A DNA stretch of 64,000 bases from a plasmid. The DNA lies in sequence record NZ_AP019725.1; one strand, 5' to 3'. This document shows, piece after piece, positions 12,491-64,000 of this stretch. A program made the translations under genes and the position numbers. The notes beneath the pieces were generated by a model. The model saw nothing but the letters and a program-made list of their open reading frames with translations, had not been told where the DNA came from and did no database searches. The number at the start of each line of letters is the position of its first letter. The first letter of the stretch is position 1.

Positions 12491-12496
12491 TACGTT

Positions 12497-13030: not shown

Positions 13031-13105
13031 TAATAGCATTGCTGATGATTTAATATTGTTTCCTTTTAAAGTCGTGCATAACAACATATAGTTTGTACCA
13101 ATTAA

Positions 13106-13157: not shown

Positions 13158-13193
13158 GTATTGAAATAATTCTTTGAATAAATTTCGTATTTT

Positions 13194-13508: not shown

Positions 13509-13600
13509 AGAAATCGGGTGTTTCCTCTTTTATATTTGAACGAACATGATTATCTTTGTGAAAGATAATCTTTCTCACTTATAATATAAAACTCATATAA

Positions 13601-15004: not shown

Positions 15005-15042
15005 CTCACAACAATAGATAAGGAAGAACAAAAACAAAAGAC

Positions 15043-15693: not shown

Positions 15694-15711
15694 GGATTAC
15701 TAAAATTAAAA

Positions 15712-16539: not shown

Positions 16540-16683
16540 GGGAAATGAGAAGTATGCCAACGGAAAACGAATTTTCAAGGATACATCGTTTATTTCTGAT
16601 TCTGAGAAACAAGGTCAGCCGGTTTTCTAAGCAAGAGAGATTCTCATAGGGAAAAGTAAACACAGCGATATGCATCAAAAATA

Positions 16684-16732
16684 GACACCAATCAGAAAAT
16701 ACAAAGTTGCTTGTTTTAATGATTGGTGTCTG
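16684..16732. terminator. bidirectional terminator hairpin (12-bp perfect stem AGACACCAATCA / TGATTGGTGTCT)
   Basis: Lies between the convergent genes 15712..16539 (+) and 16753..18369 (-). Confidence 0.6.
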
Positions 16733-16752
16733 GAACTGGTTTGGGAGTTATA

Positions 16753-18369: not shown

Positions 18370-18440
18370 ATCTTTTAAAATTTAAAATTACACATTTTTT
18401 TGAACTGATAGGGAAAAAAGGGAGAAAAACTTTTTTTATT

Positions 18441-31503: not shown

Positions 31504-31513
31504 ATTGTTCATT

Positions 31514-32308
31514 TTACTTAAAATCAAAATTATAGTCTTCATTCATAGATTTTTTTCGAGCCAGTTCCTTCTCCATCCGTCCAATGGCTATGGAAAAAAA
31601 GAATTCCACCATGGGGGCTGTGTTACGCTCATCCCGGCATGCTTTAAGAGCGCCGATGTATTTTTCCCTATCTGTACTTTCAATGAGGAGCATAGGATAT
31701 CCTAATTTGACTAAAATGAAATTAGACAACAATCGTCCAAGCCGTCCATTCCCATCCCGGAACGGATGCAGGAAAATGAAATGCTTATGGAACTGTGCTG
31801 CAATTTCTATGGGATGTACCGGCAATTGCTCTATTGCTTTCTGTGTAGCTTCCATTAGCTTAGGAACACGGGCAATCAGTTCTTCATGATCGCCAAAAAT
31901 TGTATCACCAGCTCCCATGTCAGTATTGGTATATTCTCCTGGCACTGCATCTTTATATCGGTATGTTAGCGTATGCTGGGTCAGAATCCGATGTGTCTCC
32001 TTAACTAACTGTTCTGTTAACGGCAGCTCTGTTTGCCCCATTAGAAAATCATACGCATTGAAGTGATCCAGTATCTCAAATGCTTCAAAGAGAGTTTTGC
32101 CTTGTGGTATCATTCCCAGCCCTTTTTCTTTCAAAGCTCTTGTGTCATCTACAGAGAAGGTGTTGCCTTCGATTGCACAGCTATGAGCTGAGAAGAGTAT
32201 CTCATTGTACTCTTTCAAATCCTCTACATTGAATTTATCAATGACGGTGGTTTTATACTCTCTCAATAAGGTATTATACCTTTCAATCTCTCTTTCAAAC
32301 ATAACCAT
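31514..32308 (-). CDS. Fic family protein
   Basis: Canonical Fic motif HPFRDGNGRLGRLL. Confidence 0.85.
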   Translation of the reverse strand: MVMFEREIERYNTLLREYKTTVIDKFNVEDLKEYNEILFSAHSCAIEGNTFSVDDTRALKEKGLGMIPQGKTLFEAFEILDHFNAYDFLMGQTELPLTEQLVKETHRILTQHTLTYRYKDAVPGEYTNTDMGAGDTIFGDHEELIARVPKLMEATQKAIEQLPVHPIEIAAQFHKHFIFLHPFRDGNGRLGRLLSNFILVKLGYPMLLIESTDREKYIGALKACRDERNTAPMVEFFFSIAIGRMEKELARKKSMNEDYNFDFK

Positions 32309-38887: not shown

Positions 38888-39934
38888 ATGGATATCGAAA
38901 CTGCAACAAGCAATTTTCTGAGTGAGCTACGACAGATTGGTTTGGATAATAACGGTGCACTGTTAATCCAGGTACAAATAGATGGCGTAAACCATATAAT
39001 GAGCTATGGAAATTTGAATAATTTTGCAGCAGGTGCGAAGATGATGGAGAAAAAAGGGGATAGCTTAATCAAGTTTATGGAGAGGGAAATCCCAATTGCT
39101 TCCATCAGAGAGAGTACCAAAAAAATCCATTTGGACACACTGAACCAAATTAGGAGCTTTTCACCGAACATTAGCCTTCAAGAGGTATCCAGTGATTTTC
39201 TTCTTGAATTTGAGATTCACATGCGTGAGGTATGTAATCTATCAACGAACACGATAGCTCGTCACATGAAATCACTCAAGAGATATATCAATATTGCACG
39301 AAAAAAAAGAATAATCACAGAATACCCGTTCTTGAATTATACAATCAGAACAGAACAAGTACATAGAGATGCACTTACTGAAAAGGAACTTGAAATATTG
39401 GAGAAATATAGAGAAAATCTTGCAGAACCCAATGAGGCGTTAAACGCTTTTCTCTTCAGTTGTTATACTGGTTTAAGATACTCGGATGTGCGCATGTTTA
39501 CCAAACAGAATATATACACAATCAACCGTAAAAAATGGATTGTCCTCAAAATGTATAAGACAAACAAGGAAATACGCATACCGTTAAGCACAATCTTCGA
39601 AGGAAAGGCGCTAGAGCTTACAAGATCCATTTCGAGGAATAGGGGAGTAATATTTCGCATCGGAAGCAACCAGCAAGCCAATAGGGACCTGAAAAAAATT
39701 GCAAAACAAGTAGGGATAAAAAAAATGACCTTTCACACTGCCCGACATACTTGCGCAACACTGCTCTTGTATAGAGGTGTCAGTATAACTACAGTTCAGA
39801 CCATACTCGGCCATCAAAGTGTAAAAACCACGCAGATATACAGTGCCGTAACAGATATGACCTTGGAACGAGATCTAAAGAAAGGAAGTGCCAAAAAGGG
39901 TAGGGGAGAGAAGATTAGGAGACGAAAACAATGA
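38888..39934 (+). CDS. tyrosine-type site-specific integrase
   Basis: C-terminal catalytic region (HTARHTCATLLLYRGVSITTVQTILGHQSVKTTQIYSAVT) with R, H-x-x-R and Y residues. Confidence 0.8.
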   Translation: MDIETATSNFLSELRQIGLDNNGALLIQVQIDGVNHIMSYGNLNNFAAGAKMMEKKGDSLIKFMEREIPIASIRESTKKIHLDTLNQIRSFSPNISLQEVSSDFLLEFEIHMREVCNLSTNTIARHMKSLKRYINIARKKRIITEYPFLNYTIRTEQVHRDALTEKELEILEKYRENLAEPNEALNAFLFSCYTGLRYSDVRMFTKQNIYTINRKKWIVLKMYKTNKEIRIPLSTIFEGKALELTRSISRNRGVIFRIGSNQQANRDLKKIAKQVGIKKMTFHTARHTCATLLLYRGVSITTVQTILGHQSVKTTQIYSAVTDMTLERDLKKGSAKKGRGEKIRRRKQ

Positions 39935-40231
39935 CTTAATAGAGTAGGGGATAGGGGTAGTGTAAAATAAACAGATAGCTAAAAAGTAAATTTGAGAAAA
40001 GCGTAGCGATTCAACTGAAAGAGTGGTCGTTACGCTTTTGCTTTTGATGTGGAAAAGGTCGTTTGCAGACATCCAAAAGCCACACAACGCAAGAGTTCAG
40101 TTACCACATCATTACTGCCGTAATGTGTGAACTTCCAGAATAAGCATCTGTTTTTCTGCGATTTGCGTAATTTTGCGTAGCTGTTGGTAACTCACGGTAA
40201 ACTAATTTTGTCACCAAAAAAGAAGTGAGTT

Positions 40232-49937: not shown

Positions 49938-50492
49938 ATGTACGGAAAATTGAGAATGTCGTTTATTTCGCTAGTGTTGTTTTTTGGTAGTGTGGAATGC
50001 TTCGGGCAGTTTTATTCTGCAAGGACTAATATCCTTGGTCTTGTTACGGGTAATCTTAATGCGGAGTTTGGTATGACTTTGAACAAGAAGTTTTCTCTTC
50101 ATCTTCCAGTTCAGTACAATCCTTTCATTTACAGCAAGAGTAACAATACTAAATTCCAGAACCTGACAGTTCTTCCCGGTGTCCGCTATTGGTTTCGTGA
50201 GAGCTTTCGCGATCCGTTTGTGGGTTTCTCGGTTCTTGCCAGCCGTTACAACATCGGCAATATCTGGGACAAGTACCGTTATGACGGTTGGGGCTTGGGG
50301 GCTGGTCTGTCTTTCGGGTGGACCTATCCGATGGCTCCCCGTTGGAACTTTGAATGGGAGCTTGGACTTGCCGCGTTTTGGGCCAACCATGACAAGTCTC
50401 TCTGCAAGACCTGCGGATATAAGTTTGACCATGAGAGGAAAGTGTACCTGATACCCCATAAGATTTCAGTGAACCTTATTTATCTATTCTGA
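49938..50492 (+). CDS. DUF3575-family outer-membrane beta-barrel protein (first gene of an Mfa-type fimbrial cluster)
   Basis: Signal peptide plus RTNILGLVTGNLNAEFGMTLNKKFSLHLPVQYNPF and an aromatic C-terminus typical of DUF3575. Confidence 0.7.
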   Translation: MYGKLRMSFISLVLFFGSVECFGQFYSARTNILGLVTGNLNAEFGMTLNKKFSLHLPVQYNPFIYSKSNNTKFQNLTVLPGVRYWFRESFRDPFVGFSVLASRYNIGNIWDKYRYDGWGLGAGLSFGWTYPMAPRWNFEWELGLAAFWANHDKSLCKTCGYKFDHERKVYLIPHKISVNLIYLF

Positions 50493-50536
50493 CGGTTAGG
50501 GAAGTAAATATCAATTGGAAGGAGGAAAATAGAATA

Positions 50537-51040
50537 ATGACGTATTTCGTTAACCATCTGTCTCTGTATAGTCCTAAAAACAGGGCATGCAAGAAATTAT
50601 TGGATTTTATCAGTCAGTTTGAACATGTCCTTATCAAGGATGACTGCTCTCTGGATGCTTTGTCATCTTTGATTGAAGATAGAATCCGGGAAATCAATAC
50701 TTCGCATCCTAAATTGCGGCCTATCTGCTATTCCCGGAATCATTCCCTTCAACGTATTACGGCGTCTGTCTTGCCGGCTTCCGGTGTACCGGATTATGTG
50801 TTCATCATGGATTTCTGCCAAGTGTGCAGCATTTTCCAGTATTCTGAAAAAGCGTCTGTTGTTCCAGGTGTCTGCCGTGTTTGCGGGTGTACCGAAAATG
50901 GCCCTTGTTACCATCCGGATTACGGAACCTGCTGGTGGGCTGATGAAGAGCATACGATTTGTTCCCATTGTGCGGAAAAGGCAGTCACAGAAGATCCGTT
51001 GACTACTCACTGTATAAATGCAAAGGAGGATGGGAAATAA
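50537..51040 (+). CDS. hypothetical Cys-rich (zinc-ribbon-like) protein
   Basis: C-terminal CRVCGCTENGPCYHPDYGTCWWADEEHTICSHCAEK. Confidence 0.45.
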   Translation: MTYFVNHLSLYSPKNRACKKLLDFISQFEHVLIKDDCSLDALSSLIEDRIREINTSHPKLRPICYSRNHSLQRITASVLPASGVPDYVFIMDFCQVCSIFQYSEKASVVPGVCRVCGCTENGPCYHPDYGTCWWADEEHTICSHCAEKAVTEDPLTTHCINAKEDGK

Positions 51041-51279
51041 TGGAAATGACCCAGCCTGTTTGGATATTCTTTGGCATAGTGCTTTTCATGGCACTATGTG
51101 GCATTCTGATAATGATAAGGGATTGAGAGGGTAAGTGATGACTTTATATATTGTGTTGATCAGCGTTTTGGGGACTGTTGTCTTACTGTGCGTTCTGCTC
51201 AGCGTTTATATGGCCGCCGAAATTGAACCTGATAATGATGATTTCTGACGAATTATTAACATGTAAAAAATAGAGAACT

Positions 51280-51618
51280 ATGTTACAATCACAAGTAATT
51301 GGTAACCTGGGAGCGGATGCTGCCGTGGAGAAAGACAATGCGGACAGACAGTATGTGTGTTTCAGCATGGCACACAAGGAGTTTGGCAAGGATCATAATG
51401 GGCAGATGACGGAAAGGACGGTCTGGCTACAGATAAGGTGGTACGGCTATACGGAAAAGATGCTTGCCTGTCTGAAGAAAGGGACAAAAGTTTTCGTGAG
51501 TGGACGTATGTCCGTGAAAGCATACCTGGATAACAGCGGTAATCCGCAGCCGTCGCTCAATATATCCGCCACTGAGATAGAACTGTGTGGGACAAAACCT
51601 GATAGTGCATGTTCGTGA
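51280..51618 (+). CDS. ssb: single-stranded DNA-binding protein (short OB-fold SSB)
   Basis: MLQSQVIGNLGADAAVE...WLQIRWYG...KVFVSGRM...A follows an SSB OB-fold pattern. Confidence 0.7.
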   Translation: MLQSQVIGNLGADAAVEKDNADRQYVCFSMAHKEFGKDHNGQMTERTVWLQIRWYGYTEKMLACLKKGTKVFVSGRMSVKAYLDNSGNPQPSLNISATEIELCGTKPDSACS

Positions 51619-51777
51619 TATTGGGAAGAGATGCCATGAGTGACTGTGAAGAGGGACTGACAGAGTATCTGAAGGGTGTCTGGCTCAAGATTCGTCCCGG
51701 ACTTTCGGTAATGCTTGGCATTATCATTCTGATGAATCTTCTGTATGTTATGATTGTATTACTAAAGCATTGGAAAA

Positions 51778-53844
51778 ATGATTGATAAAAGGAGACTGTT
51801 CCTATTTGGTACCCTTTCCACGCTTGTGCTGAGCTGCAGCACTCCCATTGTTTCCGTTTTAGAGAAAAACGGTGCCCAACGTGTGGGGCTGACGCAGATC
51901 CAGCGCAAGCCTAACAAAAAGAGGGTACAACCGGCTGTGATCGACACTACGCAGGTATATAGCAGGGAGACGATGCGGAAGCTGAAGGAGGGCTTCACGG
52001 AATATGAAAAGGATGATAATGGCGAGGAAATCCTAAGCGTATCGCTTGCTGACGTGCAGATTGTCGCAAAAAGCAAGAATGTTGCCGAGCGTGCGGGCAA
52101 GATTGCCATAGATTTCAAGGTTGATGTCCCGGCGGCCCTGATAGATAACAAGTGGCAAGTACAGTTGTCTCCGGTAGCATACAAGAACGGCAAGAGGATA
52201 TGCTTTGACAAGATACTTCTTTCCGGCGCCCAGTTCCTCAGACAGCAGGAAAAGGGGTATCGGATGTACCAGAACTTCATAAGTTCCATTATTCCTGACA
52301 GCGCGTACATGCAGTTGCTGTTTGATGCAAAGGGCTATCGGAAGGCCCTTTTTGACATTGAGGAACAGTTCTATTATGCCTGGAGGAAAGAACAGTTGTC
52401 ACAGACCCGCTTTATTGACTGGAAGAGTGTTCGCAACAGACGCAATCTACTGTTCAACGGTGTAATGGAACGTAACCGTGCAGCAGTGAGACCTGACAAC
52501 TGGAAAACCGTTCTTCCCGCGTACTGGCTGGAGAGGGAAGTCGCCAATGCTCCAGGACATTGGGGAAATTATCTTTCCCCTAAATACCGGTTTGAACAGC
52601 GGCTTATTACGAAAGAGGACTCGGTGGAGATACAGAAACGTTTCTTTGACTGGAAAAAGAAGGCGGAGAATGAACGGAAAAAGGCCCTGACCCAAGAAAA
52701 ATACAATGAATATGTCCGGTTTCCCAAGGAGCCGTGCCGCCTGGATACCGTAATACAGAACGGTGACCGGTTTGAATACTACTATTCGCAGAATATCGAG
52801 GCGGATGAGAATATACGTAAGATTGACGTGACTATAGACGGTATCGTGGTTGCGATGGACGAGAGCCGTTATCAGTTGCCCCAGAGCGACACGCTTACCT
52901 ACTATATATCCTCAATGGTACAGTTCCTGGACCATGCGCCCAGATACAAACGGATAATAGTCTCCCGTCATGCTACTGCCAACCAAACCGCCTTTATCAG
53001 CTATAAGGCGGGTTCCTCGCTGTTTGACGAACGGATAGGGAACAACAAGGAAGAGATAGACAAGGTGATGGAGACGATGCACAAACTGACATATACCGGT
53101 GAGCTGGTACTTGACAGTGTACATATGTGTGCCACATCCTCACCGGAAGGTACAGACTATCTGAACATGCAGCTGGCCAGACAACGTGCAAAACAGCTCA
53201 AGTCGTATCTGATACAGCGTACGGATGACAGGGAAGCAGTCGCCCTTTTCCGTGCCGATGCGATAGGGGAGGACTGGACAAAGCTTGTCGGTCTCATCCG
53301 CAATGACTCGAATATTACGCAGCGCAGCGCGATATTGAATGCCATTGCATCTGTCAAGGAGAACGATGCCCGCGAGGAGGTACTCAGGAATTTCCATGAT
53401 TACCGGTATATAAGGGAGAAACTGTATCCGCAGTTGCGTGCAGTGAATTTCCAGTTCCATCTGCACCGTAGTGAGATGGTGAAGGATACCATTCATACAA
53501 CCGTCATAGACACAGCTTATATGGATGCTGTCAAACAGCTGGAGAACCGGCAGTACAAGGCCGCCCTGCCGGTACTCAGTGAATACAATGACCATAATAC
53601 GGCAGTCTGTCTGATGAGCCTCGGATATGACCGCCAGGCTGTCGAGATACTGCGCTCCCTGCCGCAGAATGAGGATACCCTTTATCTGCTTGCGATTCTG
53701 TATGTACGTGAAAAGAGGTTTGAGGATGCGGTGTCCGCTTTCAGTGAGGCGTGCCGTCTTGATCCCGGGAAATGGTTCAGGGGAAACCTTGATCCGGAAA
53801 TCTATCAGCTAATAAATGACTATAACTTAAATTTTGAGCAATGA
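51778..53844 (+). CDS. DUF3868-position protein with an OmpA-like peptidoglycan-binding motif and C-terminal TPR repeats
   Basis: Signal peptide, an OmpA-like motif (SPEGTDYLNMQLARQRAKQLKSYL) and TPR-like repeats at the C-terminus. Confidence 0.6.
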   Translation: MIDKRRLFLFGTLSTLVLSCSTPIVSVLEKNGAQRVGLTQIQRKPNKKRVQPAVIDTTQVYSRETMRKLKEGFTEYEKDDNGEEILSVSLADVQIVAKSKNVAERAGKIAIDFKVDVPAALIDNKWQVQLSPVAYKNGKRICFDKILLSGAQFLRQQEKGYRMYQNFISSIIPDSAYMQLLFDAKGYRKALFDIEEQFYYAWRKEQLSQTRFIDWKSVRNRRNLLFNGVMERNRAAVRPDNWKTVLPAYWLEREVANAPGHWGNYLSPKYRFEQRLITKEDSVEIQKRFFDWKKKAENERKKALTQEKYNEYVRFPKEPCRLDTVIQNGDRFEYYYSQNIEADENIRKIDVTIDGIVVAMDESRYQLPQSDTLTYYISSMVQFLDHAPRYKRIIVSRHATANQTAFISYKAGSSLFDERIGNNKEEIDKVMETMHKLTYTGELVLDSVHMCATSSPEGTDYLNMQLARQRAKQLKSYLIQRTDDREAVALFRADAIGEDWTKLVGLIRNDSNITQRSAILNAIASVKENDAREEVLRNFHDYRYIREKLYPQLRAVNFQFHLHRSEMVKDTIHTTVIDTAYMDAVKQLENRQYKAALPVLSEYNDHNTAVCLMSLGYDRQAVEILRSLPQNEDTLYLLAILYVREKRFEDAVSAFSEACRLDPGKWFRGNLDPEIYQLINDYNLNFEQ

Positions 53845-54728
53845 GAAGAAACTTGAAAATCTTATTTTATGCCAGCCTTGCCGTATTGTTCTCTTCTTGT
53901 GAGAATCTTTTCAAGGAAGAGTGTGAGGCCAAGGGGTTTCTTTCCGCCACAGTGTCGGACAAGGGACCTGTACCGTCCACAACGGAGGAAATTCAAGTAC
54001 GCTATTATGACTACCATACCGGTGTGGAGCATACCGAGAAACTGGGGGAACCTGACTATTTCGCTCTAGGCAACCGTTTTTTGTCACAGCTGGATGCCGG
54101 AACATACAGATTCCTCGCATATACCCGTTTCAACAACAAAATCCGTAATGCAGGCGACATCTCGACAATTGAGATTTATGCCGATACGGTAGTTTCGGCC
54201 AAATATGCCTGTCCGGTTATAGCGAATCCACAGCATCTGGTCTTTATGGGCAAGGAGAGTGGCACCATTCTTCCGGAGGATACAACCTATCGGGAGTTCG
54301 TTCTCTCGCCGATGGTGCAAAAGATCATATTTAATGTGACAATAAGAGGACTTGCGCCTGCCCAGACTGTTTCCGGGATGGAAGCCTTGCTCAAGGGAGT
54401 AATCATTTCCCGGAAGATATATACCAACCAGCCCCAGCCTTCCTATGCCGGTCTGGTCTTTGATTTTGCAGAAAAAGAGGGGAAATATACTTTCGAAGCC
54501 TATGTGTTCGGGCTTTCCAATAAGGTGGAAAACACGCTCTGTATGGAAGTTGTCACCAATTCAAAGAAATATTATCCGGAAGTGGACCTTTCCTCTGTCC
54601 TGGCAGATTTTACATCTGACGGCATCGTGTTCGAGATTGTCATCGACTTGAATGCTGGTGTCGATCCGGTTGTTACCATAGCCGGCTGGCGCGATCTGGA
54701 CTGGGGAGAAATCCAACCCGTATTATAA
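53841..54728 (+). CDS. FimB/Mfa2-like fimbrial anchor/accessory lipoprotein
   Basis: Lipoprotein signal (LAVLFSSCEN) and ~295 aa, in the position of the Mfa2-like gene. Confidence 0.5.
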   Translation: MRRNLKILFYASLAVLFSSCENLFKEECEAKGFLSATVSDKGPVPSTTEEIQVRYYDYHTGVEHTEKLGEPDYFALGNRFLSQLDAGTYRFLAYTRFNNKIRNAGDISTIEIYADTVVSAKYACPVIANPQHLVFMGKESGTILPEDTTYREFVLSPMVQKIIFNVTIRGLAPAQTVSGMEALLKGVIISRKIYTNQPQPSYAGLVFDFAEKEGKYTFEAYVFGLSNKVENTLCMEVVTNSKKYYPEVDLSSVLADFTSDGIVFEIVIDLNAGVDPVVTIAGWRDLDWGEIQPVL

Positions 54729-54753
54729 TTTTTTATTCACTAAATTTTTTTAT

Positions 54754-55689
54754 ATGAAAATCAAATTAGTTTCGGCAGCCCTGCTTGCACTGTTGGCATG
54801 CAGCTGCACAGAAGGGTTCAATGACAAGAATGGAGTTGACGGCACCAATACGATGCAGGTCAACGCGTACATCGGGAAGTCACCGGTAACAAGAGCTGAA
54901 AAGACTGCCTGGGAAAACAATGACCAGCTGGGCGTCTATGTCGTGGACAACTCCATTGACGTTCCGTACAAGGGTTCGGCATCCTACAGTAACATCCCTT
55001 TTGTCTTTACCGGTAAGGGATTCAAGAGCGACAATATCCTACTTGATGAGAATGAGGGTACTGTATACGCCTATTATCCCTATAAGAGCGACCTTGCGGA
55101 CCCGAAGGCTGTACCGGTTGACATCAGCGAGCAGACAGACCACTTGTACGGGGAGGGAAACAGCAAGGTGAGCATCACTGCCCGTAATGTGGACATTGAG
55201 ATGCAGCATGCCCTGACCCAGGTTGTCTTCAAGATCAGAAAGACTTCGGACTACAAGGGTGGCGAAGGCAAGATTACCGCTGTGGTTCTGAAGAATACAG
55301 GTGCGGCCAAACCGTTGCAGACCAAAGGCAGCTACAACATAGCTACTGGGGCGGTGACAACCACCCAGGATGGAGATGTCAGTTTCTCGGTCAACCAGAC
55401 ATTGACGGAGGACTATGTTTCCCTTTCCAGCATTCTTTTTCCGGTAAGCGCCACTTCCGGAAAAGACATGCAGGTTGTCTTCACGATTGACGGAAGAGAC
55501 TTGAAATATGATTTCCCGGCAGGTACAGCATGGGCAGCCTCTTACCGTAACATCTATTCCATTTCCCTTGACGGAAACGGTCTTATTATCGGTGGTGGTG
55601 AGGACCCGTCCGGAGGCCAGTCCGGTGTGACAATCGAACCGTGGACGGACAGCCAGAATAATGACATTTCTCTTGTTCCTGTAATTTGA
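54754..55689 (+). CDS. fimbrillin-family protein (Mfa-like pilin)
   Basis: Lipoprotein signal (LLACSC) and a VYAYYPYKSD motif. Confidence 0.6.
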   Translation: MKIKLVSAALLALLACSCTEGFNDKNGVDGTNTMQVNAYIGKSPVTRAEKTAWENNDQLGVYVVDNSIDVPYKGSASYSNIPFVFTGKGFKSDNILLDENEGTVYAYYPYKSDLADPKAVPVDISEQTDHLYGEGNSKVSITARNVDIEMQHALTQVVFKIRKTSDYKGGEGKITAVVLKNTGAAKPLQTKGSYNIATGAVTTTQDGDVSFSVNQTLTEDYVSLSSILFPVSATSGKDMQVVFTIDGRDLKYDFPAGTAWAASYRNIYSISLDGNGLIIGGGEDPSGGQSGVTIEPWTDSQNNDISLVPVI

Positions 55690-55775
55690 GAATGACGATT
55701 GATATACAGAAGCCTGCTTTTGATAGGCATGGCTTCTGTATATAAAATTGGGGGCTCCCCATAAAAAGAAAAAGT

Positions 55776-58700
55776 ATGAAGAAACATTTTTTATCATATA
55801 TATCTGTACTCCTGCTGGCACTCCTCCTCGGGTGTGAGAAGGACACCGGAACATCCGGTTCATCCCCTGTCTGTTTCTATCTGTCTCCAGAGCCATCCAC
55901 CCGTGCGACAGATACGGAATTTGAGAAGGGGGATGCTATCGGAGTTTTTGCGGCCGCGCGTGATGACGAGTCGGTTCCGGCCCAATTGCATCCTTCCGGT
56001 AATTTTGCCGCCAACAAGAAATATATATTTGACGGTGAAAAATTTGTACCGGATGGGGAAAGCAACTCAATATTCATAACATCCTATCCCATTGACTATT
56101 ATGCATATTACCCGTATGCTACTGTTGACAACCCTTTGGAGTTCACTTTCCATGTGGCTGCTGACCAGGAAAGCCTGACAGAATCAGACCTGATGTATGC
56201 CAGGAACACTGACGGCTCAGGCAAAAACAATATTCCTTTAACCTTTATCCACAAGCTATCGAAAGTTGTGGTTCCCTATAGCCGGGAGAATGTCGGGGGG
56301 GCTGCCGGAACTGCCGTTGTCAATGATGCATATACAGGCTGTATCATGAATCTTTCGACAGGAGAGATACGTACCTTGTTCGATGACGGCCAGCAGGATA
56401 TTGTTATGTTCAAGGATGGTAACGCAGCCGATGTCAGCTTTAGTGCCATTTTCCCGGAACAGACTTTTAGTGCAGCCGACCCTTTTATTATTTTTGATGA
56501 CTCGAAAGAGTTTAAATTATCTGCAGACCGTCTGTTTGAAAGCGAGCATGTGGTGGAATTGCCGTTTATGGGCAAGATCTTGGAGTACCAGTTTGCAGTG
56601 ACTCCGATAGAAAAGAACATATCAAGTAAAGGCGGCACCTTTAACCTCGCAATTGCTTCTAAAAAATATTATTCTGTCAATGGTACATTGATACCCGGAA
56701 CAGAAACGCCTCTTGATTATGACTGCTCATCATCTGTGGATTGGATAACGTTTGATAAGCCGACGCTGGAAGTTACAGTAGCTGAAAATACAGATACGGA
56801 TAATAGTAGAACGGGAATAATAACATTTAAACAAGCTGAATCGGATAAACAAGTAAGCTGCACGGTAACCCAGTCTGCGGGTGAAATCACATATGGTGCT
56901 TGGACTGTTACTATCTCCGCTAATCCGACAACCATAGCTGCTGTGGGTGGTACGTCAACCCTGACCTATTCCGCTGTGCGTAACGTTCTGACCAATGGAA
57001 CTGTTACCGGCACAGAGAAGGCTACTCCGACAATTAGCGGTAGTGCCACCGGCTTCACCCGTTCCGGCACTACGGTGACGGCTGCCAACAATACTTCTGC
57101 ATCTTCCCGCAGTGTGACTTATACTGCCACTCATGAAGGCAAGTCCGCCACTTGTACGATCACCCAGTATGCAGGTAGTAAACAGTATGCTTCTTGGAGC
57201 GACTGGACTGTTACTGTATCAGCTAATCCGACTACTATTGCGCGGACAGGGGGTACTTCTACCATAACAAGGGCTGCTACCCGTACCCGCACCTGGACAT
57301 GGAACGGTGTTTCCGGTTCCGGCGGTACCGAGACTGACAGTGGCACTCCAACATTAAGTGCAAGTGGTTCCGGCTTTACCTTGAGTGGTACAACGCTGAC
57401 TGCCGGCAACAATACCACGACATCTTCCCGTAGCTGTACGGTAACTGCTACCCATGCCGGCAAATCTGCTACTTGTACAGTTACCCAGTCTGCGGGTGAG
57501 ATCACATATGGTGCCTGGAAAGTTACCATTACGGCCAACCCGACTACCATCGCTGCTGCGGGTGGTACGTCAACCCTGACCTATTCTGCTGTCCGTGATG
57601 TCTTGACCAATGGAGTTGTCACCAGTACAGAGAAGGCTACTCCTACAGTTAGCGGTAGTGCCACCGGTTTCACCCGTTCCGGTGCTACGGTGACGGCTGC
57701 CAACAATACTTCTGCATCTTCCCGCAGTGTGACTTATACTGCCACTCATGGTGGCAAGTCTGCCACTTGTACCGTTACCCAGTCTGCGGGCAGCATGACT
57801 ACCGAATATGGCAGTTGGACCACTAGCAGCCTTACAGTGAGTGCTTCTCCTAATCCTGTAGCCGCTTCCGGAGGAAACTCCGCATTGGGCTGTAAAGCTA
57901 ACCAGACCCGTCCTAAATATACGAAGTGGAACGGTGTTGTCACCAAGACTGATACAGAGTCTCAGTCTGTTGCAGTAACAGCTACATGGAGTAAAGTTTC
58001 CGGCACCGGTTCGCTCAGCGGTTCTACGGTTTCCTTCGATAATAACACTACAACAAGTGCTAGAAGTGGTGTTTATCGTGCCTCCAGTGGTGGTAAGACG
58101 GCTGACGTTACGGTCAGTCAGTCTGCAGGTAGCATGACAACTGATTACGGCAGTTGGACTACTAGCAGCCTTACAGTGAGTGCTTCTCCTAATCCTGTAG
58201 CCGCTTCCGGAGGAAACTCCGCATTGAGTTGTAAAGCTAACCAGACCCGCTCTAAGTACACGAAGTGGAACGGTATTACTACCAATACGACAACTGAGAG
58301 TCAGACAATCGCAGTTAGTGCCAGCTGGAACAAGGTTTCCGGTTCCGGTTCATTGAGCGGTTCTACGGTCACTTTCGGTAATAATACCACAGCAAGCGCA
58401 CTTAGTGGTGTTTATCGTGCCTCCAGTGGTGGTAAGACAGCTGACGTTACCGTCAGACAATCGGCTGGTTCTGTCTCTTATACATATACATTTACCTTTA
58501 GTGACGGCTTGACAAGTACCAGCTGGAGCAGCATAGCCGCCGGAGGTGATTCCAAGAGTTATTCAATTGTCTCTACCAGGGTCGTGAAGTGGAACGGCGT
58601 ACAAACTGGCACAGAGAATGTCAGTTATTCTGGTTCCAGCAATGTGTCCTGGGCTTCTGTTTCCGGATCTAAGATAACTGTTGGAGACAATCCGAATGCT

Positions 58701-58802
58701 TCAGCCCGTAGTGGTGTGATAACGTTTACCCAAGCGTCATCCGGAAACACAATAAAGGTAACTCTTCTTCAACTGAAGAAAAATTCTGTAGACATTAATT
58801 AG
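55776..58802 (+). CDS. giant fimbrillin/Mfa-like adhesin with tandem BACON-type domain repeats
   Basis: Lipoprotein signal, YYAYYPY motif, then at least five ~100-aa repeats (...CTVTQSAGEITYGAWTVTISANPTTIAA.GGTSTLTYSAVR...), supported by near-identical ~300-bp nucleotide repeats. Confidence 0.75.
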   Translation: MKKHFLSYISVLLLALLLGCEKDTGTSGSSPVCFYLSPEPSTRATDTEFEKGDAIGVFAAARDDESVPAQLHPSGNFAANKKYIFDGEKFVPDGESNSIFITSYPIDYYAYYPYATVDNPLEFTFHVAADQESLTESDLMYARNTDGSGKNNIPLTFIHKLSKVVVPYSRENVGGAAGTAVVNDAYTGCIMNLSTGEIRTLFDDGQQDIVMFKDGNAADVSFSAIFPEQTFSAADPFIIFDDSKEFKLSADRLFESEHVVELPFMGKILEYQFAVTPIEKNISSKGGTFNLAIASKKYYSVNGTLIPGTETPLDYDCSSSVDWITFDKPTLEVTVAENTDTDNSRTGIITFKQAESDKQVSCTVTQSAGEITYGAWTVTISANPTTIAAVGGTSTLTYSAVRNVLTNGTVTGTEKATPTISGSATGFTRSGTTVTAANNTSASSRSVTYTATHEGKSATCTITQYAGSKQYASWSDWTVTVSANPTTIARTGGTSTITRAATRTRTWTWNGVSGSGGTETDSGTPTLSASGSGFTLSGTTLTAGNNTTTSSRSCTVTATHAGKSATCTVTQSAGEITYGAWKVTITANPTTIAAAGGTSTLTYSAVRDVLTNGVVTSTEKATPTVSGSATGFTRSGATVTAANNTSASSRSVTYTATHGGKSATCTVTQSAGSMTTEYGSWTTSSLTVSASPNPVAASGGNSALGCKANQTRPKYTKWNGVVTKTDTESQSVAVTATWSKVSGTGSLSGSTVSFDNNTTTSARSGVYRASSGGKTADVTVSQSAGSMTTDYGSWTTSSLTVSASPNPVAASGGNSALSCKANQTRSKYTKWNGITTNTTTESQTIAVSASWNKVSGSGSLSGSTVTFGNNTTASALSGVYRASSGGKTADVTVRQSAGSVSYTYTFTFSDGLTSTSWSSIAAGGDSKSYSIVSTRVVKWNGVQTGTENVSYSGSSNVSWASVSGSKITVGDNPNASARSGVITFTQASSGNTIKVTLLQLKKNSVDIN
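56871..58460 (+). repeat. intragenic tandem repeats (~300-340 bp units; near-identical pairs at 56871..57180/57471..57790 and 57791..58130/58131..58460)
   Basis: Read directly in the sequence. These repeats encode the BACON-like domains. Confidence 0.7.
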
Positions 58803-58811
58803 TTATCTGAT

Positions 58812-59594
58812 ATGAAGAAAGTAATTTTTCCTTTAGCACTTTGTCTCATCACCGCCGCATGTGGCGGTAATGAGAACGGCGGCACGGAACCGGAGATGAA
58901 GATCAGCTCTTGTTATGTCGTAAGCAGTTCGTCCGGCCAATCCGAGAATTTTTCCTCTCCAGTCGGCATGTATATCACTTCGGAAGCCGGGCAACCTTAT
59001 GAAGGAAGCGGTGTCTGGAGCGCAAGCTACAACTCTGGGGCGTGGGCAATGGATAAGCCCGTATATGTGACTAAAGCCGGTAAGGTATATGCTTATTATC
59101 CCTATTCGTCGAATGATTCCCCACCGGTCCTGCCGCTTGATATGACAAAGCAGACCGATGTACTATACAGTAGGGTTGCGTCTCTCATTGCGCCAGGTTC
59201 AGTCTCCCTATCTGTCAAATTGTACCATGCTTTGAGCAAACTTGTGGTTAGCGTTAAAGGTGAGGAGGTTACGGGGCTGTCTCTTTCTTCTCCGGTAACA
59301 TGCAGGTTTAATATCTGTACCGGGGAGTTCACGGATTTACAATCCGGTCAGGTGGCTTCTACGGGTGCCCGGCTGTTTGTCGTTCCTCATGTTACAGTAG
59401 GGAAAGAAATGCTCATTACCCTGAAGTCCGGGAAACAGTACACATATTCGGTGGATGGTACAGAGTTCCGGGCTGGAGAAAGCTATACCTACGAGTTCCA
59501 GCTTAATGAAGATAGGGACAAACTGGAAATCCTTGACATATCCGTGGAGGATTGGATTAACGACAACAATTACAATGACTATTTAAGAAGATAA
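58812..59594 (+). CDS. fimbrillin-family lipoprotein
   Basis: Lipoprotein signal (LITAACGG) and VYAYYPYSSND. It ends 2 nt before traE. Confidence 0.6.
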   Translation: MKKVIFPLALCLITAACGGNENGGTEPEMKISSCYVVSSSSGQSENFSSPVGMYITSEAGQPYEGSGVWSASYNSGAWAMDKPVYVTKAGKVYAYYPYSSNDSPPVLPLDMTKQTDVLYSRVASLIAPGSVSLSVKLYHALSKLVVSVKGEEVTGLSLSSPVTCRFNICTGEFTDLQSGQVASTGARLFVVPHVTVGKEMLITLKSGKQYTYSVDGTEFRAGESYTYEFQLNEDRDKLEILDISVEDWINDNNYNDYLRR

Positions 59595-59596
59595 TT

Positions 59597-59908
59597 ATGA
59601 AAAAGAAAATTGTTTTATTGGGTCTGTTGCTTCAGGCATCGTCCTCAATGTTTGCACAGACAGCAAACTCCAGGTCAGACATAAACAGCATGCTGTCTTC
59701 CTGGCTGATACCCGCCATCGGTCTGTTGATGTTGGGCGGATTTATCGGACTTGTAATCTATAACCAAGAAGCTCTTCGCGGGAAGAACGGACTGTCAAAG
59801 CAGGACGGTTGGATATCCGTGGGAGAGGGGATGATATTTATTGTTGTCGGTATTGCGGCTATCGGATTCATAGCTTCGAAACTGGCAAGTATGAATTTCA
59901 GCATCTGA
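59597..59908 (+). CDS. traE: conjugative transposon protein TraE (DUF4134-like)
   Basis: 103 aa with a signal peptide and two transmembrane segments. It sits immediately before the traF/traG homologs. Confidence 0.65.
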   Translation: MKKKIVLLGLLLQASSSMFAQTANSRSDINSMLSSWLIPAIGLLMLGGFIGLVIYNQEALRGKNGLSKQDGWISVGEGMIFIVVGIAAIGFIASKLASMNFSI

Positions 59909-60228
59909 TGGATATTTGCAAGGTATATAGGGGACTGGATTCTCCCTGCAAAATCAAGGGGGTGCTGAGTCACTATTTCTATATTGTCTTCTGTGCCTAT
60001 CTGGTGAGCTTTGTCTTTGTCCTGTTTTCTTTCAGTTCGATTTTGCAGAAGGGAACTGTACTGTCCTTCCTTGTGGAGGCGGTCATTGAATTGGGAATTC
60101 CGACAGCTCTTTATGTGTATTTCTATAGGAAATCCGACAAAGTGAAGATAAGAAAGGACAACCGTGTTATCACAATATCGAACCGTGGGCTTTATAGGGC
60201 TTTAAACCAAAGAAGATATGGACAATGA
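59908..60228 (+). CDS. traF: conjugative transposon protein TraF (DUF4133-like)
   Basis: ~106-aa membrane protein. Its ATG overlaps the traE stop (ATGA). Confidence 0.6.
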   Translation: MDICKVYRGLDSPCKIKGVLSHYFYIVFCAYLVSFVFVLFSFSSILQKGTVLSFLVEAVIELGIPTALYVYFYRKSDKVKIRKDNRVITISNRGLYRALNQRRYGQ

Positions 60229-62647
60229 TTTTTTTTATCCTATACATGACATCATTCCGGATAGGGAAGGCCATGGGATGGTTATCGGAAAGAACGGCAG
60301 TCTGACCTATGTGGTCAGACTGTCATCGCCTGAGGTGTATTCACTTTACAAGGATGAACTGGCAACACGCCATGCTGTATTTGTACAGGCATTCTCCCAT
60401 ATGCCTGACAATAGTTGGGTGCATAAGCAGGATATTTTCAGAAGTCTTCCCTTCCAGTCAACCGGTGTGGGGATGTCGTATTTGGCCAAATCTGATCAGG
60501 AGCACTTTTCAGGAAGGAAATATCTCAAGCACAGCTGTATGATAGCCTTCACTCTGGTAGGAATACAGTCGTTGTCCTCCGCATATGTGAAGAATATATT
60601 CTCTTTTAAGGAGAATCTTTCCGGTGAGGATTCAGAAAGGTTGGATGAGTTCTTGTCGGCCGTTGAGTTTGCCATAAATAATCTGTCTGCGCTCCGTAAT
60701 ACAAGGATTGACTTTCTTTCCTTGGATGAACTGCGGGAGTATCTTTTCCTTTCCGCTAATTTCTCGGAAAAGAACGGAATACGTGATATACATTTTGAAG
60801 AGCAGATTACTGCTGGAAATACCAAGGCGCGGGTGTATGCCATCACAGACGACGAGTTCTTGCCTGAACAGTATCCGGTGTATGGAAAGGACTACACTGT
60901 TTCCAAGGACAAGTCCGAACTTTATATGTCTCCTTCCGAGGCATTTGGCGGCATTCATCTCAATCATAACCATGTGTATAACCAGATCCTTTATTTTTAT
61001 TCGGACAAAAAGTTGAAGGACACGTTGCGCCGTAATCTGGATTCCCATATCGCCAACCGTGGCTGGGACAGAATCAACTCGCCGGCAAAGATTGCCAAAA
61101 TGACGGAACTGGTCAAGGAGATTAAGGACAATAACGAGATCCTCTGCTATGCCCATTACTCGGTTGTTCTGTGGGAAGAAGATACTCAACAGTTGGAACT
61201 GGCCGAGAAGGAGTTGCGGTCATCGCTCGACTTGTTTGATCTGAAATATTATATACCCTCATATGGCAACCTTGCGGATTTATATGCCGGTGGAATAGTT
61301 GGCTGTGTATCTTCGCTCAGGCTGGAATATATGTTCATGACTTCGCTCTCCCTTGCCGTAGCTTTCTTTGTCCACTATACAGGCTTTTCCGATGATCCGG
61401 ACGGTATTCTTTTCAACGACCGCCTGACTCAGATTCCGCTGCGCAAGGATATATGGGATGCCAACAACCGCCGTATCAAGGCGCGTAATGCCGTGGTTAT
61501 CGCACCAACCGGCTCCGGGAAATCCTTTCTGACGAATAATATCATCCACCAGCTCTTGGACAAGGACTTTACAGTGGTGGGTGTTGAATTCGGAAATAGC
61601 TTCAAGCAATTGTGTTACCTCTATCCGGAGATAGCCATACACATTGAGTATGATCAGAACCAGCCCCTTGGCATCAATCCTTTCGATCTCGGAGGTTCAC
61701 CCATGACCCCCGAAAAGGAGGAGACACTGGTCGCACTCTGCCTGCGTTTTTGGCAGAACAGCTCGACAGACCCCAATCTGACTGTAGCCTTGCGGAAGAT
61801 GCTTTCCCAATACTATTGTGATGTCAGCCAAGGACATTCTTTTCCGGGTTTCTACACTTATCTCACGCAGAATTATGAGAGTCTGTGTGAGAAGTGTGAC
61901 ATCAGGCCGGATTACTTTGACATTGATTCTTTCCGGCATGTTTGCAGTGAGTTCATGCCCGGCAAGAGCTACGCGAATCTGTGTGCCGCTGAAGGTGTCG
62001 CCAGCAGCCTGAGTGATAAGAGGTTCATCCATTTTGAACTGACCAAAGTCAAGGCAAACCCTTTTGTTGCTTCTGTCGTGATGAGCCTTCTGTTTGACGT
62101 CATCAATAATAAGATATTGTCAGATCCTTCAAAAAAAGGGTATATCATTTTTGATGAATATGCCGAGACAGCCCAGATGAAGTCTTCCAACTCACTGCAG
62201 GGTGACATACATCAGACTGTCGCTTTCTTCTACCAGAAAATCAGAAAAGAGAACGGAGCTGTCATGACCATTATCCAGTCACCTTTCCAGCTGCCGGAAA
62301 ATGAATATACGAAAGGTATTATAGCCAATACCCAACTGTTGTATGTGCTTGAAGGTACCGAGGTCGTATATGATGCGGTGATCAAGACCTTTATGATAAA
62401 GAACAATGCCCACATTAATCAGATGAAGTCCATACAGAACAATTATGACTGTACGCATCCCTATTCAGAGTGTTGGATCAGATTTGGCGAGAACTATGCA
62501 TTGACGGTCCGTCTGGAAGCTTCGGCACGCAAGTATCTTGCATTCCAGACTCAGGGAGAGAAACGTGCTGCTCTGGACCGGCTGTATAGTACAAACGGCC
62601 ATGATATGCAAACGGCCATTGAAACATATTTAACTTCTAAAAAATGA
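60218..62647 (+). CDS. traG: conjugative transposon ATPase TraG (VirB4-like)
   Basis: 809 aa with a Walker A motif (VVIAPTGSGKSFL) and Walker B (IIFDEYAE). Confidence 0.85.
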   Translation: MDNDFFYPIHDIIPDREGHGMVIGKNGSLTYVVRLSSPEVYSLYKDELATRHAVFVQAFSHMPDNSWVHKQDIFRSLPFQSTGVGMSYLAKSDQEHFSGRKYLKHSCMIAFTLVGIQSLSSAYVKNIFSFKENLSGEDSERLDEFLSAVEFAINNLSALRNTRIDFLSLDELREYLFLSANFSEKNGIRDIHFEEQITAGNTKARVYAITDDEFLPEQYPVYGKDYTVSKDKSELYMSPSEAFGGIHLNHNHVYNQILYFYSDKKLKDTLRRNLDSHIANRGWDRINSPAKIAKMTELVKEIKDNNEILCYAHYSVVLWEEDTQQLELAEKELRSSLDLFDLKYYIPSYGNLADLYAGGIVGCVSSLRLEYMFMTSLSLAVAFFVHYTGFSDDPDGILFNDRLTQIPLRKDIWDANNRRIKARNAVVIAPTGSGKSFLTNNIIHQLLDKDFTVVGVEFGNSFKQLCYLYPEIAIHIEYDQNQPLGINPFDLGGSPMTPEKEETLVALCLRFWQNSSTDPNLTVALRKMLSQYYCDVSQGHSFPGFYTYLTQNYESLCEKCDIRPDYFDIDSFRHVCSEFMPGKSYANLCAAEGVASSLSDKRFIHFELTKVKANPFVASVVMSLLFDVINNKILSDPSKKGYIIFDEYAETAQMKSSNSLQGDIHQTVAFFYQKIRKENGAVMTIIQSPFQLPENEYTKGIIANTQLLYVLEGTEVVYDAVIKTFMIKNNAHINQMKSIQNNYDCTHPYSECWIRFGENYALTVRLEASARKYLAFQTQGEKRAALDRLYSTNGHDMQTAIETYLTSKK

Positions 62648-62651
62648 CAAC

Positions 62652-63206
62652 ATGAGACATCTTTTATTATCCCTATTCGTGATGTGCTGTTCGATACGGT
62701 TGGCACATGCACAGATCCCGGTGACTGACGCCGCGATGAATGCCAATACCATAGCCAACCAAATTACTAATGCGGCAACCTGGGGCAACCAGTTGCTGAA
62801 GCTGAAAGAGCAGGCTTCTATCCTTACCACTACCCTTAAGTTTGTCACAGACGTCTCTTCGGCAATCAGGGATGCAGCTTATGCCAAATCATTGATTGAG
62901 CGGCAATCCTATATAGTGGACCGGTGTACTGACGTTATTGTCCGTGCCGATAAGGTCGATTTGTCCCTTGCTTCTTCCATTGAGCGCAATGTCACTGACT
63001 TCCTTGCGACCAATAATTCTCTGATATCCTTGATCTCGAATACGATGACCAGTAAGTTCAAGATGAATGACAGTGAGCGTCTGAAGAGTCTGATGGATAT
63101 AAAGAAGGAACAGGATGAACTGCTCCAGAGGCTGCATACAGTGGATATGATTCTGGGCACATCGATGGCCACCCGTGATATCATTGAGTTACAACTTCTA
63201 AAATGA
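62652..63206 (+). CDS. conjugative transposon protein TraH/TraI-like (secreted)
   Basis: 184 aa with a signal peptide (LFVMCCSIRLAHAQ), in the position following traG. Confidence 0.45.
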   Translation: MRHLLLSLFVMCCSIRLAHAQIPVTDAAMNANTIANQITNAATWGNQLLKLKEQASILTTTLKFVTDVSSAIRDAAYAKSLIERQSYIVDRCTDVIVRADKVDLSLASSIERNVTDFLATNNSLISLISNTMTSKFKMNDSERLKSLMDIKKEQDELLQRLHTVDMILGTSMATRDIIELQLLK

Positions 63207-64000
63207 TGATTATGGGAAATATAGAATCCATTCAAGTGGCTTATGACCGGACGAAATCATATATTGTATATGACTCCTTCCAGTATATAATGATAGCCAT
63301 TGTTGTCTTTCTGATCGGTATGAAACTATGGGATGAGTGGCAAAAGAATCTTTCAAGCAACAACCATCGTTTTGATGTGGCCGCATACTGGGGGCAGGTG
63401 AAGATATGTCTGGTTGTCTGTTTCATTGCCACTTCTGCCGGTATGGTTTTTCATCTGGTTGAGACGGTCTGCGTTGAACTGCAAGACAACCTCATCAACG
63501 ACTTGGGTGGTGATACGGGCAACAAATCCATAGAGACTATGACGAATATGGTGAAGAACCAGGTCCTTGCAGTACAGGAAAAAGAGTCTAAAGGGTTGAC
63601 GCTTGATATTCCCAATATCACGGATATTGTCTGGAAGGCCCTTACCGCAATAGTGATGTCTGTCGGTGTTTTCCTTTTCAAATACACCTATACATTTTTT
63701 ATTCTAGGGCGGTATATGTGGCTTTTACTGTTGGAACTGATTGCACCGGTGGCCATTGTGCTGATGATACACGAAAATACCCGGAGCTATTTCTATACGT
63801 GGCTGAAGAACATGATCATCTGCTATCTGATGATTCCGATGTTTCTTTTGGCGGACAAGTTCTCGAATGAGGTGGCCGGCTTTTTTATGGAAGGCAAGGA
63901 AAACCTGGGACAAGTTACTGTATTGGTGATTGTATGTGTCGGTGTCTGGGTGAAAATCAAGATGTTCAGTGTCGTGAAAGCTAAGGCTTCCAATTTATTT
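63203..64000 (+). CDS. traJ: conjugative transposon protein TraJ-like polytopic membrane protein (3' partial; runs off the window end)
   Basis: Open frame from the ATG at 63203, overlapping the stop of the previous gene, with multiple hydrophobic segments. It is absent from the ORF track only because no stop occurs before the window end. Confidence 0.55.
   Translation, partial: MMIMGNIESIQVAYDRTKSYIVYDSFQYIMIAIVVFLIGMKLWDEWQKNLSSNNHRFDVAAYWGQVKICLVVCFIATSAGMVFHLVETVCVELQDNLINDLGGDTGNKSIETMTNMVKNQVLAVQEKESKGLTLDIPNITDIVWKALTAIVMSVGVFLFKYTYTFFILGRYMWLLLLELIAPVAIVLMIHENTRSYFYTWLKNMIICYLMIPMFLLADKFSNEVAGFFMEGKENLGQVTVLVIVCVGVWVKIKMFSVVKAKASNLF

Follow-up and report, generated by a model that had tools for sequence, protein, structure and literature searches.

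Type V pilus genes contiguous with type IV secretion genes on a Bacteroidales plasmid

Type V pili and conjugative elements

Adhesive organelles of conjugative elements are already known, as are type V pili encoded on Bacteroides mobile elements. The 98-kb Bacteroidales conjugative plasmid pMMCAT carries an Mfa-like locus, the fimbriae of which aggregate cells (bioRxiv 10.1101/2024.04.29.590671). Here we analyze a plasmid stretch of 64,000 nucleotides (nt) from sequence record NZ_AP019725.1, hereafter the window, in which a cluster of type V pilus genes runs directly into genes of a type IV secretion system (T4SS). A preliminary description, made from the sequence without database searches, held this architecture to be undescribed. 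For the fusion itself, this still stands, given that no account of a fusion between pilus and T4SS genes turned up in the searchable literature, and searches on DUF3575, DUF3127, and the Bacteroides plasmid p5482 and fimbriae returned nothing relevant; type V pili on plasmids and on integrative and conjugative elements (ICEs), however, have been described, in pMMCAT and in ICEs carrying diversity-generating retroelements (DGRs).

The resemblance to pMMCAT lies in a DUF3575-headed set of type V pilus genes on a Bacteroidales conjugative plasmid, with fimbriae demonstrated there and genes alone observed here, and in the pilin genes being a hotspot of variation. The pMMCAT locus (NZ_CP072253.1) consists of three genes, encoding a DUF3575 protein of 410 amino acids (aa), a DUF5119 protein and one fimbrillin, with a divergent LuxR-type regulator, and adjoins parA; the pilus side of the window, in contrast, has six genes, including those for an OmpA/TPR lipoprotein and a 1008-aa adhesin. 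The pMMCAT locus lies ~45 kb from a CTnDOT-like T4SS and is separately regulated, whereas the pilus genes of the window are fused to a T4SS of another subtype. The possibility that the window is pMMCAT itself was ruled out by this different T4SS and the unlinked three-gene mfa locus, and a megablast search of the L016 and L010 lineages (genome loci introduced below) against plasmids found no pMMCAT-like record.

Plasmid p5482 of B. thetaiotaomicron VPI-5482 (NC_004703.1) has a T4SS of the same subtype as the window, with a 43% identical TraG and the same gene order (VirB2 position, VirB3 position, TraG, TraI-like, VirB6-like, TraM, TraN), and the same BfmA/DUF5712/coupling-protein mobilisation genes; it also carries a DUF3575-DUF5119-fimbrillin cluster. 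The window differs in both composition and position from this pMMCAT/p5482-type locus, with its DUF3575 protein of ~410-430 aa, DUF5119 protein and single fimbrillin encoded beside parA, and the p5482 DUF3575 protein matches the OmpA/TPR protein of the window only weakly (1e-5).

The DGR-carrying Bacteroides ICEs resemble the window in placing anchor-stalk-tip type V operons on conjugative elements; their pilus/DGR locus is treated as cargo, with rteC, merR and araC-family regulators and integration at tRNA-Lys, their tip is a DGR-diversified C-type-lectin protein, and no fusion with a T4SS operon is described (bioRxiv 10.1101/2024.11.15.621889). The tra operon of CTnDOT (traA-traQ) is similar in encoding a Bacteroidetes-type T4SS with TraG/VirB4, and TraM and TraN follow downstream in pBuniCL06T06-1, a close relative of the plasmid analyzed here. 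Unlike CTnDOT, the window has VirB5-like and TrbL/VirB6-like proteins, no traA-D set, and pilus genes ahead of the T4SS; furthermore, the carrier here is a plasmid with ParA and ParB, and related ICEs with the fused array exist.

Adhesive aids encoded in transfer regions include the thin pilus of R64 (IncI1), with its pil operon and PilV shufflon, and PrgB of pCF10, which stabilise mating pairs mainly in liquid, a variable tip setting recipient specificity. The likeness to the window is one of analogy, and a shufflon-like inversion system also adjoins the present operon; the families, however, are unrelated (a type IVb pilus and a Gram-positive surface adhesin), and the cassettes inverted here are not pilin tips.

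Another type V cluster was observed on a 117-kb B. ovatus plasmid (L028, NZ_CP041396.1), where it occupies positions 9013-18662, beginning 68 nt after the coupling-protein gene on the same strand, and encodes a DUF3575 protein, a 562-aa protein, a DUF5119 protein, three fimbrillins and an InlB-repeat protein, with an ISBf3 insertion behind it. Here, a type V cluster is embedded among conjugation genes in a second way.

Linkage of the pilus and secretion genes

The array consists of 14 plus-strand genes, from the DUF3575 gene that starts at 49938 to a VirB6-like gene truncated at the end of the window, and its open reading frames bear out the preliminary description of a contiguous same-strand series in which type V pilus genes run into T4SS genes. 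All gaps within the array are between -11 and +153 nt. At the junction of the last fimbrillin gene with the first T4SS gene, the TAA stop ends at 59594 and the next ATG starts at 59597, leaving a gap of 2 nt. The gene that follows, coding for a 106-aa protein, most likely starts at the ATG at 59908, sharing the preceding stop as TGATG, and its 3' end overlaps traG by 11 nt. A strong terminator together with an independent promoter at the fimbrillin/T4SS junction had been named beforehand as evidence that would separate the two gene sets, and consensus scans detected neither. There is no plus-strand terminator-like site at 59594/59597, and Bacteroides -7 boxes (TAnnTTTG) are found at the expected frequency (5 observed, 5.0 expected), with 0 within intergenic gaps; overall, the scans for sigma-70-type and Bacteroides-type promoters yielded chance-level matches that do not locate the operon promoter. 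We infer that the array is one transcription unit.

The same arrangement recurs in relatives on plasmids and in chromosomes. A search of plasmids with TraG identified four B. fragilis plasmids (68-69% identity), in which the order is DUF3575, OmpA/TPR, anchor-like protein, fimbrillin, BACON protein, fimbrillin and T4SS, with junctions of 7 nt, and pBuniCL06T06-1 has the same order with tight junctions. When species-representative genomes were scanned with a TraG alignment and the resulting 21 loci were labelled with the window proteins, the fused array was found in six (L007, L009, L010, L016, L017 and L025), with TraG identities of 63%, 46% and 42%; for several genome loci, the end of the last pilin gene and the start of the following one share 4 nt. 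The neighbor-joining tree of TraG has three Bacteroidales clades; two of these, which share only 41-46% identity, are made up of loci with the fused array. Starting from homologues of the OmpA/TPR protein, we also arrived at an ICE at differing chromosomal sites in B. thetaiotaomicron and P. dorei, which carries the same array preceded by same-strand primase-like and small genes. Thus, the expectation that DUF3575 and fimbrillin genes would be found upstream of the T4SS in other Bacteroidales elements was borne out for both plasmids and integrated ICEs.

We further scanned metagenomes with an OmpA/TPR alignment and inspected the best 80 of at least 499 loci, spanning 45-100% identity. Pilin genes are followed by T4SS genes in all of the loci that reach far enough (~58 of ~58). 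Apart from one frameshifted copy, their junctions measure -4 to +15 nt, and copies without a T4SS were absent from these 80; such copies, if any, would sit in the distant tail of the at least 499 matches. The occurrence of the same cluster at non-mobile sites, which had been put forward as a possible refutation, is therefore not what the relatives display, given that all informative ones have a T4SS directly downstream. The pilus module sits between DNA-processing genes (those for single-strand DNA-binding (SSB) proteins of different types and primase-like proteins) and the T4SS rather than at an end of the element. It is abundant in gut metagenomes, where one OmpA/TPR protein cluster includes 3090 member sequences and another is found in 735 collection blocks.

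Could a fimbrial cluster have been inserted beside the tra genes by chance or recently, with independent transcription and no functional link? The window alone leaves room for an internal promoter, and mobile insertions are frequent nearby, including a 9-kb insertion and IS66- and IS256-family transposases. However, all informative loci, on plasmids and ICEs alike, keep the linkage, even where TraG identity has fallen to 41-42%, and junctions of only -4 to +15 nt are too short for both a terminator and a promoter. Nor are the relatives recent copies of one element, because their protein identities are 41-69%. It is this conservation across relatives, rather than the window alone, that makes the linkage more than chance, and, judging from these comparisons, fortuitous abutment is effectively excluded.

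The degree of divergence was compared for individual proteins. Relative to the window, the identity of TraG in five lineages is 69/63/46/42/41%, that of the OmpA/TPR protein in five lineages is 66/64/50/50/47%, and that of DUF3575 is 69/49/47%, so that, at the level of sequence identity, DUF3575 and OmpA/TPR appear to diverge in step with TraG. The pilins diverge faster than TraG, most of all the tip protein, the length of which varies from 528 to 1414 aa among the relatives. In L007, the stalk and tip proteins are nearer to those of the window than the TraG of this locus predicts, which hints at an exchange of the adhesin cassette in this lineage.

Proteins of the array and the surrounding plasmid

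The array (all genes on the plus strand) starts with a DUF3575 outer-membrane beta-barrel protein (49938..50492; PF12099, E = 4e-48), which is kept in all lineages, followed by an accessory gene for a Cys-rich protein of 167 aa (50537..51040). Homologues of the latter are encoded in L010, L025 and many metagenome loci and, in the ICE lineage, upstream of the array. After the ssb gene discussed below comes a gene for a small hydrophobic protein of 58 aa (51609..51785), which overlaps both neighbours and is annotated in pBuniCL06T06-1. The next gene (51778..53844) encodes a lipoprotein of 688 aa, the best-conserved protein on the pilus side, which had been labelled DUF3868/OmpA-TPR. The DUF3868 part of this label was rejected, with no match even at E <= 5, and the OmpA-TPR part holds: the Pfam matches are to TPR families (C-terminal), and a faint OmpA match covers residues 425-480 (E = 0.12). 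In an AlphaFold model built from 20 homologues, the C-terminal half alone is confident, and in Foldseek it matches the Salmonella OmpA C-terminal domain, with a target template modelling (TM) score of 0.74, and also PorE of the type IX secretion system (T9SS); the model thus predicts an OmpA-like peptidoglycan-binding domain at residues ~420-560.

The 295-aa lipoprotein encoded next (53841..54728) contains a lipobox and is predicted to adopt the fold of the type V pilin superfamily. Its previous designation as Mfa2-like is apt with regard to the fold class and not with regard to the family: the match to Pfam Mfa2 (E = 0.0055, 16.8 bits) is under the 21.2-bit cut-off, there is no NCBIfam match and no PDB sequence match, and the top 12 fold matches of its model (predicted local distance difference test score, 69) are all crystal structures of the Bacteroides FimA/Mfa superfamily, with TM scores of only ~0.3. 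The model hence supports the type V pilin fold class; NCBI names an orthologue as a member of the FimB/Mfa2 family, and an Mfa2/FimB-like anchor role seems plausible.

Three pilin-like proteins follow: a fimbrillin of 311 aa, the probable stalk (54754..55689; Mfa_like_1, 1e-34; PDB 4K4K, 3T2L and 3UFI), a BACON-repeat protein of 1008 aa with a fimbrillin domain, the probable tip adhesin (55776..58802; Mfa_like_1, 1e-29; BACON, 6e-11), and a small fimbrillin-family lipoprotein of 260 aa encoded by the last pilus gene (58812..59594; Mfa_like_1, 2e-20; family profile matches to 3UFI, 4K4K, 3T2L and 3SY6). These matches to the pilin family and to Bacteroides pilin-family structures corroborate the pilin-like nature of the three proteins, which had been singled out by a shared YAYYPY motif. 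As read from the translations, the four pilin-like proteins have lipoprotein signal peptides with the lipoboxes LLAC, LLGC, TAAC and FSSC, that of the 311-aa fimbrillin being LLAC, and the OmpA/TPR protein has LSC. In polymerising type V subunits, an arginine site near residue 45 is expected from FimA/Mfa1 maturation. A TRA arginine motif is present near residue 47 of the 311-aa pilin and at residue 43 of the 1008-aa protein, and no clear arginine cleavage motif was found in the translation of the 260-aa pilin.

Within the tip gene are a 339-nt tandem repeat (57780-58456; two copies, 83% matches) and other, dispersed repeats. A GC-rich palindrome, TGGGGGCTCCCCA, is located at 55749-55761, in the 86 nt that separate the stalk-like gene from the tip gene. 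It is not a plus-strand terminator because an A-rich run comes after it on the plus strand; it may form an mRNA-processing or stabilising hairpin behind the major subunit gene.

The T4SS part begins with genes for a small membrane protein of 103 aa with a signal peptide (59597..59908), at the VirB2/TraE position, and a membrane protein of 106 aa (59908..60228), at the VirB3/TraF position. The names traE and traF given to them in the preliminary description find no backing in family searches, in which neither protein had a match even at E <= 5, DUF4133 included; we use the VirB2 name for its position only. The p5482 homologues of the two small proteins show faint matches to DUF4133 (0.022) and TrbC/VirB2 (2.3). 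Next are genes for the TraG/VirB4-family T4SS ATPase of 809 aa (60218..62647; TraG P-loop/VirB4, 7e-50), a secreted protein of 184 aa (62652..63206) and a TrbL/VirB6-like membrane protein (63203..64000, truncated by the window end; 4e-9). Of the label traH/I applied to the 184-aa protein, the TraI position is correct, and the protein itself is VirB5-like, by a weak match. TraG scores 242.1 bits against the NCBIfam model of the Bacteroidetes conjugative-transposon TraG (TIGR03783), under the curated cut-off of 261.55, and 170 bits against the general TraG P-loop domain, above the cut-off of 25.8. The order VirB2 position, VirB3 position, TraG, VirB5/TraI-like, VirB6-like is that of the p5482 subtype, with homologous proteins. 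Accordingly, from phmmer labelling of 27 loci, the TraG tree and the p5482 annotation, we assign this T4SS to a non-CTnDOT Bacteroidales subtype shared with p5482.

In a very abundant lineage with ~50% identity, the VirB3-position gene and traG are set apart by ~1.2 kb containing small ORFs (L007, 8765-9986; L057, 18338-19572); the other lineages lack this stretch.

The ssb gene (51280..51618; SSB, 3e-14), which encodes a short SSB protein of 112 aa, is a lineage-specific insertion in the array. At this position, it occurs only in the lineage of the window and in a 72% relative, the B. fragilis plasmids having other genes there and L010 none, and several other lineages are also without ssb. 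In the ICE lineage, a DUF3127 gene, which overlaps the DUF3575 gene by 4 nt, encodes a protein matching a PHROG with the annotation of single-strand DNA binding (6e-17); it is found at 9159-9452 of L030, in L031-L034 and in many of the loci L053-L113, and had no match in a PDB sequence search. Going by this annotation, DUF3127 would be a second, unrelated SSB-type gene near the place of the classical ssb of the window. The transfer region of pMMCAT likewise includes an ssb gene. An ssb gene in or beside a transfer operon is therefore ordinary, considering the DUF3127 gene of the ICE lineage and the ssb of pMMCAT. The proposal that ssb indicates membership of the pilus cluster in the transfer operon is weakened accordingly: being lineage-specific, the gene is not a conserved part of the cluster, although it lends weak, non-zero support.

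Upstream of the array is a shufflon-like multi-site inversion system. In pBuniCL06T06-1, a ~31-nt site is present four times (L001, 15280, 16783, 27397 and 28900), defining two ~1.5-kb invertible modules with paralogous cassettes X and Y of 200-216 aa, which are 36% identical; in the window, the system is located at 23039-23070 and 48979-49695, and cassette X is inverted relative to pBuniCL06T06-1. The right inverted repeat of the module next to the array (49649..49695, minus strand), a ~31-nt recombination site, is ~274 nt before the DUF3575 start. The window shares with pBuniCL06T06-1 and the B. fragilis plasmids a minus-oriented site 272-274 nt ahead of DUF3575, in each case closely preceded by a tyrosine recombinase gene, and the 49649..49695 site probably marks the left edge of the fixed upstream region of the operon. 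The ~31-nt sites are absent from the ICE clade. They flank gene cassettes, not a promoter, and an invertible promoter ahead of the operon in relatives was rejected, with no flanking inverted-repeat pairs found in the stretches searched ahead of the operon in L003, L004, L010 and L030.

The element is a plasmid of the pBuniCL06T06-1 family and a variant of this plasmid: positions 7054-64000 of the window are collinear with the circular 62-kb pBuniCL06T06-1 of B. uniformis CL06T06C18, at ~97% identity. This relationship supersedes the original assignment to a CTnDOT-type conjugative transposon, and the "ParA/TraB-like pair" 20 kb away is the plasmid partition genes, so that traA-D of CTnDOT is not a relevant point of comparison. 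The pBuniCL06T06-1 plasmid encodes ParA, ParB, a BfmA/DUF5712 relaxase set and a coupling protein, and its operon runs on beyond the point where the window ends, into TraM, TraN and an M23 peptidase. The window differs from it in a 9-kb insertion at 39932-48966, in the number of adhesin repeats (1008 versus 1100 aa), and in the inversion of the segment directly upstream of the array.

The 39932-48966 insertion, which took the place of one arm of an invertible module, encodes an integrase, a DUF5906 protein, a Toprim primase-like protein, a Mob_Pre relaxase, a class A beta-lactamase (46359-47312) and an IS256/Mutator-family transposase; it resembles a mobilisable transposon that delivered beta-lactam resistance to the plasmid. 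Positions 1-7054 have no counterpart in pBuniCL06T06-1 and include an impB/mucB-family fragment within a stretch of higher G+C. Elsewhere in the window are two paralogous ATPase_2/DUF234 genes (13601-15004 and 24059-25414) and an IS66-family transposase gene (25641-27227). On the minus strand, at 29677-32308, an orphan fimbrillin-domain protein of 621 aa (Mfa_like_1, 7e-27) is encoded next to a Fic-family gene, distant from the main pilus cluster; pBuniCL06T06-1 encodes it as well. At 11060-12490, directly after the coupling-protein gene, lies the gene for a C10-family cysteine peptidase, the N-terminal domain of which is Spi-inhibitor-like. We considered it as a general pilin-maturation protease and rejected this candidate: among plasmid records, it is found only in pBuniCL06T06-1 and is therefore no general partner of the pilus module.

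Possible roles of the pilus module in conjugation

As far as sequence comparison goes, the data are best read as a single, anciently fixed module. The region would be the front half of a mating-apparatus operon, a complete type V pilus module followed without a break by the T4SS, and, because the array is read as one transcription unit, the pilus would be made whenever the secretion system is made. Such a pilus could bring or hold donor and recipient together, by mating-pair formation, stabilisation, or aggregation favouring transfer, and the fast-evolving tip protein may set the surfaces or recipients that are bound. Because the T4SS retains a VirB2-position protein of its own, the pilus would be an add-on, not the DNA conduit. 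By analogy, pMMCAT lends support, in that a plasmid-borne DUF3575/pilin locus can make aggregating fimbriae. The reading to which we give about an even chance is a single transfer operon whose accessory type V pilus serves as a mating or aggregation adhesin. The stronger proposal, that the type V pilus is a dedicated, co-expressed part of conjugation that finds and holds recipients, with the hypervariable tip setting the receiving species, we put forward only tentatively, as rather doubtful; if true, participation in DNA transfer would be new for a type V pilus, and the Bacteroidetes-type T4SS would have its first described mating adhesin.

Several observations weigh against a role in transfer. 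The Mfa locus of pMMCAT is expressed when the conjugation genes are not, and deletion of the type V tip adhesin of a DGR-carrying Bacteroides ICE left the filter-mating frequency unchanged (bioRxiv 10.1101/2024.11.15.621889). In p5482, the genes ahead of the T4SS are those for mobilisation, and the pilus cluster is ~10 kb downstream, adjoining parA. Among the labelled genome loci, the array is not upstream of the p5482-like and flavobacterial T4SSs, the p5482-like loci having been covered with 10-kb flanks, a range that p5482's own pilus cluster lies just outside. These sister systems work without an adjacent pilus cluster, so that the pilus is not essential to this type of secretion system. 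Finally, the consensus scans leave room for internal promoters within coding sequence. The null result on filters could be explained, given that the R64 thin pilus and PrgB matter mostly in liquid.

Much of this evidence also fits a different interpretation, namely, that the module is cargo of benefit to the host cell. It would then be an adhesion or biofilm factor that serves host-cell colonisation or aggregation and happens to be fixed at the front of the tra operon, maybe read through with the T4SS genes, with at most an indirect effect on transfer. The regulation of the cell-aggregating pMMCAT fimbriae apart from the conjugation genes, the related locus of p5482 and pMMCAT that is unlinked to any T4SS, the dispensable DGR-ICE tip and the sister T4SSs without the module all favour it. 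Cargo, however, usually varies between related elements, whereas the module here is present without exception, in the same position and with overlapping junctions, in both TraG clades, on plasmids and ICEs; its non-pilin proteins co-diverge with TraG, and it lies within the transfer region, not in a cargo hotspot. We consider cargo, the foremost of the competing readings, possible and on the unlikely side; if it were correct, the strict linkage would still have to be explained.

The obligate linkage and the co-divergence with TraG would also be expected if the pilin-like lipoproteins, DUF3575 and OmpA/TPR were integral T4SS parts, forming an outer-membrane complex or conjugative filament required for transfer. 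In several lineages, the stop of the last pilin gene overlaps the start of the VirB2-position gene; OmpA-like peptidoglycan anchors are present in PorE of the T9SS and in the Dot/Icm outer-membrane cap; and we know of no conjugative pilus described for a Bacteroidetes-type T4SS. Nevertheless, the T4SS gene set of the p5482-like and flavobacterial relatives is the same and has no pilus genes beside it, which makes an integral role less likely, DUF3575 and pilins travel together away from the T4SS in p5482 and pMMCAT, making ordinary fimbriae, and the VirB2-position and VirB5-like proteins are retained. Altogether, we regard an integral role as improbable.

The proposed accessory mating pilus is directly testable because the cultured strain B. 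uniformis CL06T06C18 carries a near-identical plasmid. The interest of the finding rests on the module being widespread in gut Bacteroidales. These bacteria swap DNA very often in the human gut, and how donor and recipient are held together is not understood for their type of T4SS. Should the pilus prove to be a mating adhesin, the variable tip would help to determine plasmid host range, including that of a plasmid with a class A beta-lactamase gene, and the pilus would be a target for blocking transfer.

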